Source of the DNA: Candidatus Borrarchaeum weybense
GTDB lineage: Archaea > Asgardarchaeota > Sifarchaeia > Borrarchaeales > Borrarchaeaceae
Length of the DNA: 64,000 nucleotides
NCBI GenBank assembly: GCA_019057385.1
Contig: JAHQJS010000006.1
Location: forward strand, 128,001 to 192,000
Direction of reading: 5' to 3'
Position 1 is the stretch's first letter, and each line of letters starts with the position of its first letter. A program made the position numbers and the translations under genes. The notes beneath the pieces were generated by a model. It saw nothing but the letters and a program-made list of their open reading frames with translations, searched no databases and was not told the DNA's origin. Of the stretch, positions 55,158 to 60,929 are shown in pieces.

Positions 55158-55915
55158 TGTTACCGTTACATAGAAAAATTGTTGAACCTGATACGATCAC
55201 AGCAGAATTTAAACTCTTGACGATTGATCTGAAACTTAATTATGACAGAGCACATTGTACAGGTTGTGGTACGTGCATCTTAGTTTGTCCAAAAAATGCT
55301 ATTGAAAGAGGACCTGTAGGCGCTTCCATTAAAGGGGATACCGACACACCTGCAATACTGATCGATGAAAATAAGTGCGTTTACTGTGGCACTTGCGCTT
55401 ATATGTGTCCTTTCTTTGCCTTGAAATTGGAGATAAATGGCGAGCCTAAAAATTTGCTTGCTGAAAACAAAGCGGTTCCGCCATTACCCACAGACTTTGT
55501 CGACCTCGAAAGGAGAAAAGGAATGAAGGCACGAAAGTTATTCAATGGTAAGATAAAACTCTATCCAGAAAATTGCCCTGGAGGTTGTTCGACTTGCGCA
55601 AACATTTGCCCCACTGGAGCACTTTACGTACCACATCCTAAAGAAGGTGGAGAACGAGTTGATAAAATTGCGCTTGACGAATCGAAATGTATCTATTGTG
55701 GAGCCTGTGTTAACGCATGCCCAACAAAATGTACAATAATGAGGGATGAAGATCAGTGTCTTTTTGATACCGAATGCCCTATCGTATGTGTAAACGAATG
55801 TCCTATTGAATTAGAACGTGAAGTCATTTACGATGAAGAAGGGGAATATACAGAATTTTGGCTTAATATAGTAGAAAAATTAAGATCTCCCCTTAAATTC
55901 TACGAACGTGAGTAA
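55157..55915 (+). CDS. Polyferredoxin (FwdF-like)
   Basis: Four CxxCxxCxxxCP-type motifs plus extra Cys; TAATG coupling sets the start at 55157. Confidence 0.85.
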   Translation: MLPLHRKIVEPDTITAEFKLLTIDLKLNYDRAHCTGCGTCILVCPKNAIERGPVGASIKGDTDTPAILIDENKCVYCGTCAYMCPFFALKLEINGEPKNLLAENKAVPPLPTDFVDLERRKGMKARKLFNGKIKLYPENCPGGCSTCANICPTGALYVPHPKEGGERVDKIALDESKCIYCGACVNACPTKCTIMRDEDQCLFDTECPIVCVNECPIELEREVIYDEEGEYTEFWLNIVEKLRSPLKFYERE

Positions 55916-55961
55916 TGGAATCAAAGAAGAATATTTCGTCACTTTGGAGGTGGTGATAAGA

Positions 55962-57950
55962 ATTTCAGAAGAAGAAATGCGCATTGGAGTTTTCGTTTGT
56001 CGTTGAGGTTTCCAAATTGCAGCTTACGTTGATGTTCCAGCATTAACTGAGTACGCAACTACACTTCCGAACGTTGTACTTGCAGAACAAAATCTCTCTC
56101 TTTGCACAACAGCAGGAGCAGACCTTATAAAGGATAAAATCGTGGTTTACAATTTGGACCGCATCGTTGTCGCGTCCTGTACGCCAAAAACACATGAACC
56201 CGTTTTCAGATCTATACTCAGTGATTTGGGGATGAGTCCTAGTTTCCTAGAGTTCGTAAACATCAGAGAACATGTTGCTTCGGTACATATGGAGACCCCA
56301 AAGAAAGCCTTAGAAAAAGCAAAAGAATTATTGCGGGCTGGCGTAGCCCGTGCGGCGGAGCTTGAAGACGTTCCTAGAAGGGTTATCAGTGTAAATCCGA
56401 CTGCCTTAGTGATCGGTGGCGGGATCGGTGGATTAACTGCAGCATTGAATTTAGGAGATGAAGGAATACAGGTTTATCTCGTCGAAAAGGCACCAAGCGT
56501 TGGTGGACACATGGCAATGCTCGATCGCACGTATCCCACTGATGATTGCAGTATCTGAATCTTGGGTCCAGTAATGCTGGAAGTCGATAGACATCCTAAC
56601 ATTGAAGTTATGAGTTATTCTGAAGTGAAAAGCGTTTCAGGCGTGATCGGTGATTTCGCAGTTACAGTTGAACATAGACCAAGATACGTCAATGAGATAA
56701 GGTGTAATGGATGTGGAGTTTGTATGGATGTTTGTCCGGTCTATGCACCTAATGAGTTCGACTGTAGTCTTGGACCAAGAAAAGCGGTTTATAAGCCATT
56801 TGCACAGGCAGTTCCTAATATTGCTACAATCGACATGGATTATTGTATTCGATGTAAACTCTGTGAACGCGTATGCGAATTAGAAGCAATCGATTTTAAT
56901 CAGCACCTCAAGGAAACAGAATTACATGTAGGGACAATTATCGTTGCTACCGGTTTCGATGAATTCAAACCCTATGGTCTATACGGCTATGGTGAATATG
57001 AGAACGTTCTAACGCAAAATGAATTCGAGCGAATATTGGCGCCGAATGGACCTTCTTCAGGCCACTTACGGAGAATTTCTGACGATAAAGAGCCAAAGCG
57101 AATTGCAATAATACAATGTGTTGGTTCTAGAGACCGAACTAAGAATCTTCACTGTTCAGGATACTGTTGCATGGTTGGGATTAAGAACGCAAAACTTGTC
57201 AAACAGCATTATCCTGATGCTGAAATCACAGTATGTTACATGGACATAAGAGCGTCTGGAAAAGATCTTGAAGAATACTACACGCGTTCTAGAAAACATA
57301 AAATAAAATATCTTCGAGGAAAAGTATCAGACGTATCAGAAGATCCAGAAACTAAAAACCTTATTGTACGCGTTGAAGACACGTTAGCAAATCAGATTAG
57401 AACAATCGAAGCGGACCTAGTTATTCTATCAGTAGCCATGGTTGCAGGCGAGGGAACAGAAAAGATAGCCGAAATTCTAAAACTTGAAAGAAGTTCTGAC
57501 GGCTTTATCAAGGAGTTCCATAACCGACTAAATCCTATTGACACCAAGATCCCCGGCATTTATATTGCGGGGGCAGCACAAGGTCCAAGAGCTATAGGTG
57601 ATACAGTCGCCTCGGCAAAGGGTGCAGCGGCAGCAGCATCGTCGCCAATGATAACGCGAAAGTACGAGATGGAACTTATCAAGGCTCTTGTTGACGAAGA
57701 AAGATGTTCAGGTTGTACTCTTTGTGTCAAAACCTGTCCATACGGTGCTATAACTATGGAGGAAGGTGTTGCAAAGGTGGATGAAGTTCTTTGCCGTGGT
57801 TGTGGTACTTGTACTTCGGTATGTCTATCGAACGCGATTGCGCTACGCTATTATAGAGATGAACAAATGGAAGCCTATATTGACGCTTTATTGGCACCAG
57901 AGGAAACCGTGACCGAGAAAGCCGTAGCGGAGGAAAAAGTAGGAGGTTAG
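55962..57950 (+). CDS. hdrA: Heterodisulfide reductase subunit A, selenoprotein with two in-frame UGA (U15, U199)
   Basis: One frame across TGA 56004 (VFVCRUG, canonical CHCG) and TGA 56556 (DDCSIUIL, canonical DCSxC); about 662 aa full-length HdrA. Confidence 0.93.
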
Positions 57951-57954
57951 AACA

Positions 57955-58410
57955 ATGGGTCAGAGTAAGAAACAGAAGGTTGATGCAATTGAGTTCGTAC
58001 CTAAAATCGTCACTTTTGCATGTTGGAAGTGAGGATACGAAGCCGCAGACATGGCTGGTGTTACAAGAACCCAGTATCCTGCCAACGTGTTGCCTATAAG
58101 GGTCCCGTGTGCTGGTCGAGTATCTCCTGACCTCATTATACGAGCGTTGAGACGAGCCGATGCTGTGATAGTTGTCGGTTGATACGAAGGCGAATGCGAC
58201 TTTGAGATTGGGAACAAGATTGCAAAAATGCAGATTGACTATCTCAAAGAAATGCTTAAGACCATCGGATTAGACGAACGTCGTATACAAATGAAATGGT
58301 GTTCCGCCGCTGAAGGCGAAAAATTCGCTCTGATGGCGAATGAAGTGACAAACGAAATCTTAGAATTAGGACCTAATCCACTAAAAAACAGACCTGCTGC
58401 AAAAGAATGA
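57955..58410 (+). CDS. mvhD: MvhD/VhuD [2Fe-2S] subunit, selenoprotein with two UGA (U26, U76)
   Basis: FACWKUGYEAADMAG, VPCAGRV, VVGUYEGEC, WCSAAEG; TGA at 58030 and 58180 sit at conserved Cys positions; GGAGG SD. Confidence 0.93.
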
Positions 58411-58464
58411 AACTCATGGGAAAACTTAGTTCATGAGTTAACGCCCCTGCGAGGGGTGCGGCAG
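58394..58464 (+). promoter_or_regulatory. Candidate SECIS element (eukaryote-like, three-way-junction variant)
   Basis: Helix CUGCUGCA/UGCGGCAG, AUGA (the mvhD stop), 10-bp helix AACUCAUGGG/UUCAUGAGUU with AAAA apical loop, side hairpin CCCCU-GCG-AGGGG. Confidence 0.65.
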
Positions 58465-58506
58465 ATATACCTTATCTTTATCATTCTCTTAGGAGATTAT
58501 ATACAA

Positions 58507-59712
58507 ATGGAAATCGGAGAATTCTTCGCTGTAAGGCCAAAAGAAGGTCTTGAAGAGCTTGAATCCCACGAGTTGAAGTATGGAAACGGTGCAATTCAAG
58601 CTATAATGAATTTCATGCTAAAAAACCAATTAGTTGATGTCTTCTTGTCATTTACAGAACGTAAAGATCATTTTTCACTTAAACCGGTTATTGTAGAAGA
58701 GCCCAAAGAAATATTTGATATTTCTCTTTCACAATTTATTGCGTATAATTTACCAAACATCGATTCTGTTTCAAAATATGTTGCCTCTAAACTCAACGGG
58801 GCAAAAGATAACGACAAAAAAATAGGGGTAATTGCCAGACCCTGTGATATTAGAGCGTTCATAGAACTGGCAAAACGTGATCAAATTTCACTTGATAATC
58901 TTTTTGTGATTGGGCTCGAATGTATTGGTCGAATAGACCCAAGAGAACTCAAAAAAGTCCTTAAAAAAGCCGAGATTGACCCTGAAAGTGTGGTTAACGA
59001 AATAATAAATAACGGAGTCTTGACTCTGGAACTTAATACTGGAACAACTCAAGCCTTCAAGTTGGGCGAAGAAATCGATGTCAGGAGTTATTGTAATCAG
59101 TGCCCAAAGAAGGTTCCGAAAGAAAATGTTGCAGATTTAACCTTCTGGATTGATCATCCTCTTGAAGGAAATGAAGAGATTTTTGAAGTTCGTTCTACGC
59201 AGGGAAAGGAAGTGTTGGAGAAAGCAGCAACTGAAGTAATCGAGGTAGAAAAGCTTTCGGATGAGAATATTCAACAACTCAAGAATTACATTGCCTCCTT
59301 AGAACAAACTGCGCTTGAGCTGCAAGAGTCCGAATTTGCCAAGTTAGACGAAATGTCTGATGAAGAGCGGTTTGATTATATAATTTCAAACTTCGAGCAA
59401 TGCACGAGTTGTATGATGTGTATCCGTGCATGCCCGATCTGCTATTGTAAAGATTGTAATGTTGTACGAAGAAGAAAGGAATTAGATCCTATTATGATTA
59501 ATTTAACCCGCCTATCTCACGTAGGAGATACGTGCATCGCATGCGGAAAATGTAGCGAGGTCTGCCCGAAGTCGATTCCGCTATGTCTCATTTCAAAGAA
59601 ACTAGTGGAAGATTTAAAAGAACTCTGGCCTGGTCACGAGCCTGGTCACACTATAGAGGAAATTCCGCCAAGATCTTGGAAAGGCATGAAAGCAGCGAGT
59701 GGCGCTGAATAA
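58507..59712 (+). CDS. FdhB/FrhB-like F420-interacting flavo-Fe-S subunit
   Basis: GVIARPCDIRAFIELAKRDQI, IGLECIG, CxxC, C-terminal 2x[4Fe-4S]. Confidence 0.85.
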   Translation: MEIGEFFAVRPKEGLEELESHELKYGNGAIQAIMNFMLKNQLVDVFLSFTERKDHFSLKPVIVEEPKEIFDISLSQFIAYNLPNIDSVSKYVASKLNGAKDNDKKIGVIARPCDIRAFIELAKRDQISLDNLFVIGLECIGRIDPRELKKVLKKAEIDPESVVNEIINNGVLTLELNTGTTQAFKLGEEIDVRSYCNQCPKKVPKENVADLTFWIDHPLEGNEEIFEVRSTQGKEVLEKAATEVIEVEKLSDENIQQLKNYIASLEQTALELQESEFAKLDEMSDEERFDYIISNFEQCTSCMMCIRACPICYCKDCNVVRRRKELDPIMINLTRLSHVGDTCIACGKCSEVCPKSIPLCLISKKLVEDLKELWPGHEPGHTIEEIPPRSWKGMKAASGAE

Positions 59713-59762
59713 TTAAATAATTCTCAAACTGTCAATAAACCATCAAAATCAGTTATGAGGGT

Positions 59763-60929
59763 ATGAAATTGCAAAAAAGCATGATGACTGCTGAAGATAT
59801 AGTAGATTATTGTTATCAATGTGGCAAATGCTCTGGCAAATGCCCACTCGGACATATTATGGAATCGCCTAGAGTTATAATTCAGAAAGTACTTTCAGGA
59901 GACACCGAAGAGGTGATAAAGTCTAAAGATGTTTGGCGATGCCTCACGTGCAATGAATGCACAGTTCCAGAGTGTCCAATGGCTATCAATTTTGCTGAGT
60001 TTATTCGGACAATACGTACCAATGCGGTACGTGAGGGCTACCAAAACTTCAGAGAAACACATCACGAGGTTTTCAAAACAGCAACTAGATTAATGGCAAA
60101 CCCTAATATTAAGCCGAACAAATTATTGAACTGGCCAGAAGATGCTAAAATAAGTAAGGAAGGAGAAACTGCCCTCTTTGTTGGTTGTTTAGAGTTTTTT
60201 GATAACGTCTCTTATTTTGCCGATATGGGAGCTAAGTACGGTGAGATTTCAAAAGATGCTGTGAGAATCCTTAATGAATTAAATATTGTCCCTGTAGTCG
60301 TTGAGGACGAGAAATGTTGTGGACATGACGTTCTATGGTCTGGCGATGAAGAAACTTTTCTGAAATTGGCAGAGTACAATACAACTGCCTTTAAGAAAGC
60401 TAATGTGAAGCGTATTATAACTACTTGCGCAGAATGCTACCGCACATTAGCAGTAGATTATCCGAATTACGTGCCAGATTTTGATTTTGAGGTTATCCAT
60501 CTCTCCGAATTTCTTGCAAAGAAAATTGATGAAGGAAAATTAAAATTCCCCAGACATTTTAACAGAGTGGTAACGTATCACGATCCATGTCGACTAGGAC
60601 GACACATGAGTGTTTACGATGCTCCTAGAAAAGTGATGGAGCGTATCCCAGGTCTTACCTTAAAAGAAATGAAGAAGAATAAAGAGAAAGCGCTCTGTTG
60701 TGGTGTCAGTTCTTGGCTTAATTGTGATGATTATGCAAAAGCAATAAGGATAGACAGATTGACTGATGCACAAAACACAGGAGCACAAATATTAGTGAAT
60801 ACGTGCCCCAAGTGTGAGATGCATTTCAATTGTCTGAGATGTGAAAAAGGTGAGGACAAACCTTTAGATTTTACAAAATTAGAAGTAATGGACTTCGTGA
60901 CGCTTGTCGCAAAGGCTTTAGGTATTTAA
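59763..60929 (+). CDS. HdrD-like (HdrC + two CCG domains) Fe-S oxidoreductase
   Basis: CYQCGKCSGKCP, WRCLTC..C...CP, CCG, YHDPCRLGR, CCG..CPKC. Confidence 0.88.
   Translation: MKLQKSMMTAEDIVDYCYQCGKCSGKCPLGHIMESPRVIIQKVLSGDTEEVIKSKDVWRCLTCNECTVPECPMAINFAEFIRTIRTNAVREGYQNFRETHHEVFKTATRLMANPNIKPNKLLNWPEDAKISKEGETALFVGCLEFFDNVSYFADMGAKYGEISKDAVRILNELNIVPVVVEDEKCCGHDVLWSGDEETFLKLAEYNTTAFKKANVKRIITTCAECYRTLAVDYPNYVPDFDFEVIHLSEFLAKKIDEGKLKFPRHFNRVVTYHDPCRLGRHMSVYDAPRKVMERIPGLTLKEMKKNKEKALCCGVSSWLNCDDYAKAIRIDRLTDAQNTGAQILVNTCPKCEMHFNCLRCEKGEDKPLDFTKLEVMDFVTLVAKALGI

Follow-up and report, generated by a model that had tools for sequence, protein, structure and literature searches.

SECIS (selenocysteine insertion sequence) elements of Asgard archaea have been proposed as the link between archaeal and eukaryotic selenocysteine (Sec) decoding. 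In the genome of Candidatus Borrarchaeum weybense, an Asgard archaeon of the Sifarchaeia (Borrarchaeales), a structured RNA lies across the end of the mvhD gene at positions 58394-58464 of a 64,000-nt stretch of DNA, and the question raised by this locus is whether the RNA serves as SECIS element for mvhD and its upstream neighbor hdrA, and how exceptional its architecture is. The stretch, here called the window, is part of contig 6 of the 4.18-Mb source genome. A preliminary description had called the RNA an unusual SECIS-like three-way junction holding the mvhD stop codon in its AUGA core. According to our analysis, the RNA is very probably a SECIS element common to the co-transcribed genes hdrA and mvhD, belonging to the lokiSECIS or eSECIS-like type I class and adopting a conserved three-way junction. 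As a single locus, it is an ordinary member of this published class. The element is composed of the following parts:

58394..58464, + strand: whole putative SECIS element, three-way junction (sequence, fold and covariance model)
58394..58400, + strand: 5' strand of helix I, CUGCUGC, encoding Pro-Ala-Ala and paired with 58458-58464 in the minimum-energy fold
58458..58464, + strand: 3' strand of helix I, GCGGCAG, paired with 58394-58400
58407..58410, + strand: AUGA core, from the sequence, directly 5' of helix II
58411..58439, + strand: helix II with apical loop, 29 nt, 58411-58420 pairing with 58430-58439
58440-58441, + strand: AA after helix II, from the sequence
58443..58457, + strand: third arm (side hairpin), 58443-58448 pairing with 58452-58457, loop GCG at 58449-58451

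The initial 17 nt of the element are the final mvhD codons and the stop. Helix I had been drawn earlier with eight pairs (58394-58401/58457-58464); seven of them are present in the fold, one being U.G, and the eighth, A58401-U58457, is possible and competes with G58443.U58457. Sequence and RNAfold confirmed helix II, its loop and the AA that follows, while the AUGA with the stop codon was confirmed by the sequence and the mvhD reading frame. Helix II is continuous over 10 bp, the uppermost two pairs being G.U, and its apical loop is AAAACUUAG (58421-58429). With the top G.U open the A-rich loop reads (G)AAAACUUAG, and stem and loop can be described as 10 bp with 9 nt or as 9 bp with 11 nt, giving 29 nt both ways. 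The extra GC hairpin previously placed at 58444-58456 was recovered as a CCCC/GGGG core within the hairpin 58443-58457 of the minimum-energy fold. In RNAfold, minimum-energy and centroid structure alike were the three-way junction, with a fold energy of -29.1 kcal/mol against -17.6 +/- 2.9 kcal/mol for 200 dinucleotide shuffles (z -3.95), none of which (0/200) was as good. A covariance model built from relatives gave 59.6 bits at the element (E 4e-14 for the whole genome), a score far beyond chance.

AUGA, a continuous stem of 9-10 bp, an A-rich loop, AA, and the position behind a two-Sec mvhD and a two-Sec hdrA bear out the earlier assignment to the eukaryote/Loki type rather than to the methanococcal GAA_A type. 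In lokiSECIS as described by Mariotti et al. 2016 (PMC4989117), AUGA is followed by a 9-bp stem, an 11-nt loop running from adenines to (A)G, and then GA, or AA in VhuU; the element abuts the end of the coding sequence (CDS), and a single one stands behind the hdrA-vhuD pair. AUGA_AA cores with G[U/G]AAA loops were reported for hdrA/frhD of Sifarchaeia/Borrarchaeales by Huang et al. 2024 (PMC11227280), and the published general model of eSECIS-like type I elements has an upper stem of 7-15 bp and an apical loop of 8-20 nt, with AUGA rarely being GUGA. Standard SECIS tools fail on genes of the lokiSECIS type (Mariotti et al. 2016, PMC4989117). The same had been considered possible for the present element, and indeed no Rfam family matched at gathering score over the whole window, and at E<=10 over 55500-60000 nothing SECIS-like appeared, only chance matches to microRNA and small nucleolar RNA families. 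No second SECIS element was found in 55500-60000.

The two genes that would be served by the element, with their in-frame UGA codons, are:

55977..57950, + strand: hdrA (heterodisulfide reductase A-like), open with TGA read as Sec (U), UAG stop
56004-56006 and 56556-56558, + strand: in-frame UGA codons of hdrA, from the translation with TGA as U
57955..58410, + strand: mvhD/vhuD/frhD (FlpD family), PF02662 with E 9e-42
58030-58032 and 58180-58182, + strand: in-frame UGA codons of mvhD, Sec residues 26 and 76, open with TGA as U

By Pfam, HdrA contains the domains Fer4, Pyr_redox_2 and FAD. Sec residues 26 and 76 of MvhD align with invariant Cys columns of the relatives (C26, C76), and the four in-frame UGAs of hdrA-mvhD are located 227, 377, 1851 and 2403 nt upstream of the SECIS core. 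The N-terminal-side Sec codon of hdrA (56004-56006) sits in the motif V-C-R-U-G, whose Sec we take to be the second Cys of the C-x-C-G cluster motif of other HdrA proteins.

In this genome, elements scored by the covariance model occur behind Sec-encoding genes only: the second Sec-mvhD on contig 4 (50.3 bits), a Sec hdrA-mvhD fusion (26.9 bits) and a Sec-peroxiredoxin (17.9 bits). Around the six Cys-type mvhD paralogues no element was found (model <=11.3 bits, E 0.84). The genome-wide model search scored 150 of ~3000 first-look candidates and missed weaker elements, which were recovered by model searches of extracted regions with the filters off; loose genome-wide pattern scans gave 141 and 222 matches and were too unspecific for direct use. 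Regarding the Sec machinery, the genome encodes SepSecS (489.9 bits, above cut-off), SelD with one in-frame TGA (250 bits), and a PSTK-like protein (E 1e-54, yet under the curated cut-off). A tRNA-Sec was found in the genome neither by ARAGORN nor above the Rfam cut-off (RF01852), all RF01852 matches being sub-threshold, 71-82 nt long and similar to ordinary tRNAs. ARAGORN listed a total of only 17 tRNAs for the genome, hence many tRNA genes were missed, probably intron-containing ones; a 'tRNA-Pyl' (anticodon CUA) was called by the program at contig 7, 143743-143811 (complement).

These data bear on the view that the RNA is no SECIS element but a group of hairpins which lies between mvhD and its downstream neighbor by chance or has a regulatory role there, for example as a terminator, an attenuator or a device for translational coupling. 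The absence of an Rfam SECIS family match and of a detected tRNA-Sec would fit this view. However, the element occurs only behind genes with UGA at Cys positions and is absent from the six Cys-type paralogues; AUGA, the AAA of the loop, and the A and C after helix II do not vary among the 56 aligned sequences; SepSecS, SelD and a PSTK-like protein are encoded as parts of the Sec machinery; and the features of published Asgard SECIS elements are matched. This view is already close to refuted, and we regard it as scarcely credible.

For the conservation of the three arms, elements from other Asgard genomes were compared. Among named organisms, the closest mvhD loci are those of Candidatus Borrarchaeum yapensis and of Sifarchaeum metagenome-assembled genomes (MAGs); Freyarchaeia, Jordarchaeia, Atabeyarchaeia and numerous MAGs of Promethearchaeota (Asgard) provide more remote relatives. 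The covariance model was built from the elements of 56 relatives with the structure supplied by hand and gave 73 matches in 80 Asgard mvhD loci. In addition, the helices were parsed by a purpose-written script in 67 distinct mvhD elements, whereby helix I pairing was required. A subclass with the helix I AUGUG/CACAU (11 loci) was not reported by the model at E<=0.01 and is covered by the script parse only. Alignment by MAFFT with RNAalifold recovered helix II alone, because indels shift helix I and the side arm.

Helix I and side arm could be drawn in all parsed elements (67/67), which have a common layout. Helix I (4-12 bp) is separated from AUGA by 0-7 nt, mostly 3-5; helix II with its loop and then GA or AA follow; 0-5 nt lead on to a hairpin (3-8 bp), and 0-4 nt lead from there to the 3' strand of helix I. 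Helix II is followed by GA in 60/67 relatives and by AA in 7/67. At least 10 different self-complementary versions of helix I occur among the relatives, such as CUGCUGC/GCGGCAG, CCGCCU/AGGCGG, ACCGAA/UUCGGU, AAUGUG/CACAUU, CGUGUUA/UAACACG and UUCCGAC/GUCGGAA, and the side arm is found as CCCCU/AGGGG, AACCAU/AUGGUU, AUGGU/ACCAU, AGCUU/GAGCU or AUCCG/CGGAU. In the model-fitted alignment, compensatory changes were present in 9/9 pairs of helix II (89.4% paired), in 5/5 pairs of the side arm (88.5% paired) and in every pair of helix I (65% paired); in the MAFFT/RNAalifold alignment, they were present in 8/8 pairs of helix II. The covariation score of the whole structure was reached by none of 500 shuffles (0/500), and slid controls were 35-50% paired. 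When the flanks were shuffled and the core was kept, the stability of the real junction was matched in 11 of 2010 cases and beat the shuffle in the other 1999, with a median z of -3.7 and z < -2 in 63/67 elements. Plain minimum-energy folding gave the full junction in 39/67 of the AT-rich relatives, compared with 15% for shuffled flanks. The loop of the side arm contains a G-pyrimidine step in every element (67/67, ~30 expected) and GC in 52/67 (~16 expected).

At least five further selenoprotein genes carry the same three arms in this genome; the three-armed form is thus usual here and not peculiar to mvhD. The other elements and the associated SelD region are:

contig 4, about 1215447: SelD element with helix I, side arm and apical ministem (type II), full junction in the minimum-energy fold
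contig 4, 1214414-1215540: SelD gene region with one in-frame UGA, from the sequence
contig 4, 583564, minus strand: Sec-peroxiredoxin element, full junction in the minimum-energy fold
contig 6, 507480, minus strand: element of a thioredoxin-fold gene with the motif U-P-F-C, full junction, AUGA being the stop
contig 4, 638607, minus strand: second mvhD element, full junction, AUGA being the stop
contig 5, 171523, + strand: element behind a 40-codon open reading frame (ORF) with one UGA, full junction
contig 6, 372154: element of the hdrA-mvhD fusion, with only helix II and the side hairpin, AUGA being the stop
contig 6, 678474: element of a CxxU candidate adjacent to SepSecS, with only helix II and the side hairpin

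In the SelD element, the side arm is UCCACC/GGUGG and the closing helix GACGG/CCGUC; an apical ministem (type II) is the published form for selD elements. The hdrA-mvhD fusion (contig 6, to 372157) comprises 1161 codons. Its Sec lies in the mvhD-like part in the context V-V-G-U-H-K-G-D-C, another TGA is in frame around codon 63 of the open frame, and the UGA within the AUGA core of the element serves as its stop. The 40-codon ORF (contig 5, 171379-171501, +) has one in-frame UGA in the motif C-S-F-R-G-U-G, a hydrophobic C-terminal stretch and an uncertain start codon, and it ends 23 nt before the three-armed SECIS-like element (locus L109:1206-1292; z -3.5). Judged from these sequence features, it may encode a very small membrane-anchored selenoprotein.

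The recurrence of the arms is relevant for another explanation, in which the functional SECIS would be a two-part unit of core plus helix II with its apical loop, and the GC hairpin and helix I would be separate, for example an mRNA-stability or 3'-end structure travelling along. Published models indeed need just core, upper stem and loop, helix I is not predicted in two elements of this genome, and U-rich tracts follow helix I in most Loki-type relatives, which makes a link to 3'-end formation conceivable. On the other hand, helix I encloses both parts, as one of its strands precedes the AUGA and the other follows the hairpin, the linkers are short and limited in length, at 0-5 nt and 0-4 nt, and the arrangement recurs behind unrelated genes (SelD, peroxiredoxin, thioredoxin-like) with different sequences each time. 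Also, a terminator is not expected at the present locus, because the next gene, which has a ribosome-binding site (RBS) of its own, begins 43 nt downstream. Altogether, we consider a separate origin of hairpin and helix I unlikely and retain the SECIS element as one three-armed unit. The findings that would have spoken against the preliminary description did not occur: similar structures accompany other selenoprotein genes, the helices covary, and 55500-60000 holds no second candidate.

The arrangement of the core relative to the arms can be compared with a kink-turn, for which two strands have to be considered:

58405..58410, + strand: bulged strand with G58405 (-1b), A58406-A58407-U58408 (L1-L3), G58409 (1b) and A58410 (2b), from the sequence
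58440..58442, + strand: non-bulged strand with A58440 (2n), A58441 (1n) and C58442 (-1n, pairing with G58405), from the sequence

Here, A58440 faces A58410 and A58441 faces G58409, and the AAC of this strand corresponds to that in the GAC/AAC motif known from the literature. In the relatives, the closing pair -1b/-1n, formed by the second base before AUGA and the base after GA/AA, is G-C in 52/67, U-A in 10/67 and U.G in 1/67 elements. We infer from the sequences that the core would read as a standard kink-turn, consisting of a closing pair, a 3-nt bulge N-A-U, G.A, and then A.G or, in the present element, A.A. At the sequence level, a 3-nt bulge, G.A/A.A and a covarying Watson-Crick closing pair are all present. 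According to Huang et al. 2024 (PMC11227280), A.A at 2b.2n is a natural k-turn variant; the k-junction paper is cited there only for GA_AA pairing. Wang, Daldrop, Huang and Lilley 2014 (PMC4005666), working on thiamine pyrophosphate (TPP) riboswitches, defined the k-junction by an additional helix that interrupts the non-bulged strand. The SECIS element has such a helix at the same place, giving k-junction topology in terms of secondary structure, and it is at this level that the element resembles a k-junction. One mvhD subclass (relatives L029, L031, L034, L035, L037, L043, L048, L052 and L055) has, within about 20 nt of helix II on either side, CUGAUGA before the stem and GAAG after it, resembling the kink-turn consensus formed by box C (RUGAUGA) and box D in C/D RNAs, with two Watson-Crick pairs (C-G, U-A) under the bulge.

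On this basis, the following mode of action can be proposed. AUGA/AA together with G58405-C58442 would fold as a kink-turn with an A-A-U bulge, G.A at 1b.1n and A.A at 2b.2n, helix II would present the A-rich loop, the third hairpin would stand in the non-bulged strand, and helix I would close the junction. The folded element would recruit Sec-tRNA bound to SelB/EFSec, directly or via an L7Ae-type protein, to ribosomes pausing at the UGAs further upstream. Under the broader k-junction reading discussed below, the third arm may pre-fold a weak kink-turn, or it may dock SelB or an L7Ae-type protein in organisms that have no SBP2.

The UGA at 58408-58410, lying within the SECIS core, is the in-frame stop of mvhD and raises the question why it is not recoded itself. 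For this aspect, the downstream neighborhood has to be included:

58507..59712, + strand: gene of an FrhB/FdhB-like iron-sulfur protein, next gene downstream, from a domain match
58491-58496, + strand: AGGAGA, RBS of the FrhB-like gene, from the sequence

The mvhD gene and the FrhB-like gene share one reading frame, which is stop-free from the core UGA to the stop of the FrhB-like gene (58408-59712). Due to this shared frame, read-through of the UGA at 58408-58410 would yield an MvhD-FrhB-like fusion of ~585 residues. The open frame between both genes is not conserved, since genus-mates have back-up stops 33-144 nt downstream.

In 81 loci, the mvhD stop always lies within ~25 nt of the core. 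UGA is the stop in 20/81 mvhD genes, nearly all of these using the core UGA or the codon directly before it, and the core UGA itself serves as stop in ~16/67 parsed mvhD elements. The long ORF preceding mvhD, which is hdrA in the present case, has its end ~450 nt before the element. These hdrA-side ORFs end with UAA in 37 and with UAG in 39 of 76 cases, and never with UGA (0/76), against a genome-wide background of UGA at the end of ~29% of long open frames. The difference between 0/76 and 20/81 gives a Fisher p of 6e-7, which is overstated since the loci are related. Mariotti et al. 2016 (PMC4989117) described one gene whose AUGA doubles as the stop and proposed that UGAs near the element are not recodable and that hdrA hence avoids UGA stops, invoking proximity alone; that UGA stops often overlap AUGA was stated by Huang et al. 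2024 (PMC11227280). The stop statistics support this published minimal-distance idea and also the inference of the preliminary description that embedding the stop may keep it from being recoded. A ribosome with the UGA at 58408-58410 in its A site would already have unwound helix I and would cover helix II; with the element melted at that moment there would be no SECIS, the release factor would win, and the UGA would be read as stop.

For the stop codon alone, the overlap with AUGA could also exist without any protective role: in one frame of three the core UGA is the first stop met, and a minimal-distance rule would terminate translation there anyway. Proximity alone is the explanation given by Mariotti et al. 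(PMC4989117), in other parsed elements the stop is a UAG placed 5 nt or a UAA placed 6-25 nt before the core, and UGA is found as a stop at distances of 4 nt and 24 nt before it as well. However, the overlap is kept across the whole genus and in Frey- and Jordarchaeia and is found in four of the ~8 elements of this genome. An overlap without protection is plausible, if short of probable, and it hardly opposes the reading preferred here, because under both explanations a close UGA is not recodable. The recurrence of the overlap suggests that it is at least well tolerated.

Several observations weigh against the identification of the RNA as a three-armed SECIS with a kink-turn core. Helix I was paired to only 65% in the model-fitted alignment, which we attribute to register slips from variable spacers. 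The script parse presupposed helix I pairing, and the flank-shuffle test is the sole unbiased check of this helix. The minimum-energy folds of 28/67 relatives were without the full junction. Within the genome, the elements of the hdrA-mvhD fusion and of the CxxU candidate have no predicted helix I. Frey- and Jordarchaeia have versions with a 4-bp helix (GUAG/CUAC) between kink-turn and junction, and a kink-turn placed directly at the junction is therefore not universal. Finally, the tRNA-Sec search of the genome was negative, and we infer all three of Sec insertion, kink-turn folding and protein binding.

With regard to novelty, neither the class nor its AA variant nor the overlap with the stop is new, and two of the three features taken as 'unusual' in the preliminary description are in print: the AA core and the overlap of AUGA with the stop. 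The third, the presence of three arms, is the norm for these elements. The term 'unusual' is an overstatement. The conserved covarying side arm, the loop motif and the complete kink-turn consensus define a k-junction-like SECIS that is general across Asgard mvhD genes. The third arm is absent from the text of Mariotti et al. 2016 (PMC4989117), figures and supplements aside. The text of Huang et al. 2024 (PMC11227280), figures and supplements likewise aside, has just an 'internal loop and lower stem' with no conserved nucleotides and no third arm, and a 2026 review repeats the two-type SECIS model. No paper joining SECIS with a three-way junction in archaea was found in the literature collection searched, although figures may yet show a third arm. 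Judged by the available text, the k-junction-like three-armed form appears to be undescribed.

A more far-reaching possibility is that Asgard SECIS elements in general are not two-helix hairpins of the eukaryotic kind but k-junction-like three-way junctions closed by a helix overlapping the last codons, with a conserved third arm in the non-bulged strand that bears the G-pyrimidine loop motif, is needed for function and was lost toward eukaryotes; we put this forward tentatively and hold it to be doubtful. If the three-armed kink-turn junction is true, search models of core, stem and loop would be incomplete, the path to the eukaryotic SECIS would include the loss of an arm, and the arm with its conserved loop would be a concrete target for the missing binding partner. 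The stop-codon statistics provide clean comparative support for the minimal-distance rule in archaeal Sec decoding.

Four known systems can be compared with the element. With the k-junction of TPP riboswitches it shares the arrangement of the strands, the bulged strand being G-AAU-GA and the non-bulged strand AA-C here. There is no sequence relationship, the function is different, and the likeness is one of secondary structure; in the SECIS elements, the core is separated from the third helix by 1-5 unpaired nt and from helix I by 2-7 nt. The closest system is the lokiSECIS / eSECIS-like type I class, which has in common with the element AUGA before a 9-10 bp stem, a 29-nt span, an adenine-first loop ending in AG, GA/AA followed by C, one element behind the second gene for hdrA and vhuD, and an overlap with the CDS end. 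The text of the respective papers (PMC4989117, PMC11227280) models core, upper stem and apical loop, whereas here the 3' side of the internal loop is a conserved, covarying hairpin with a G-pyrimidine loop, and the kink-turn has a paired closure. From eukaryotic SECIS, the element differs by a shorter upper helix, AA instead of GA, and a third hairpin, which arises from the 3' strand of its internal loop. Eukaryotic SECIS elements are located far out in the 3'-untranslated region, while the present one stands against or inside the stop codon, and no SBP2 is known in archaea. Euryarchaeal SECIS elements (Methanococcales/Methanopyrus) belong to the same gene families and are likewise located in the 3' region, their vhuD versions having AUGA and GAC/AAC on the two sides of the main stem as well as a short extra stem. 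In contrast to them, helix II of the present element is continuous, with neither the GAA_A bulge nor the run of three G-C pairs in the upper stem.

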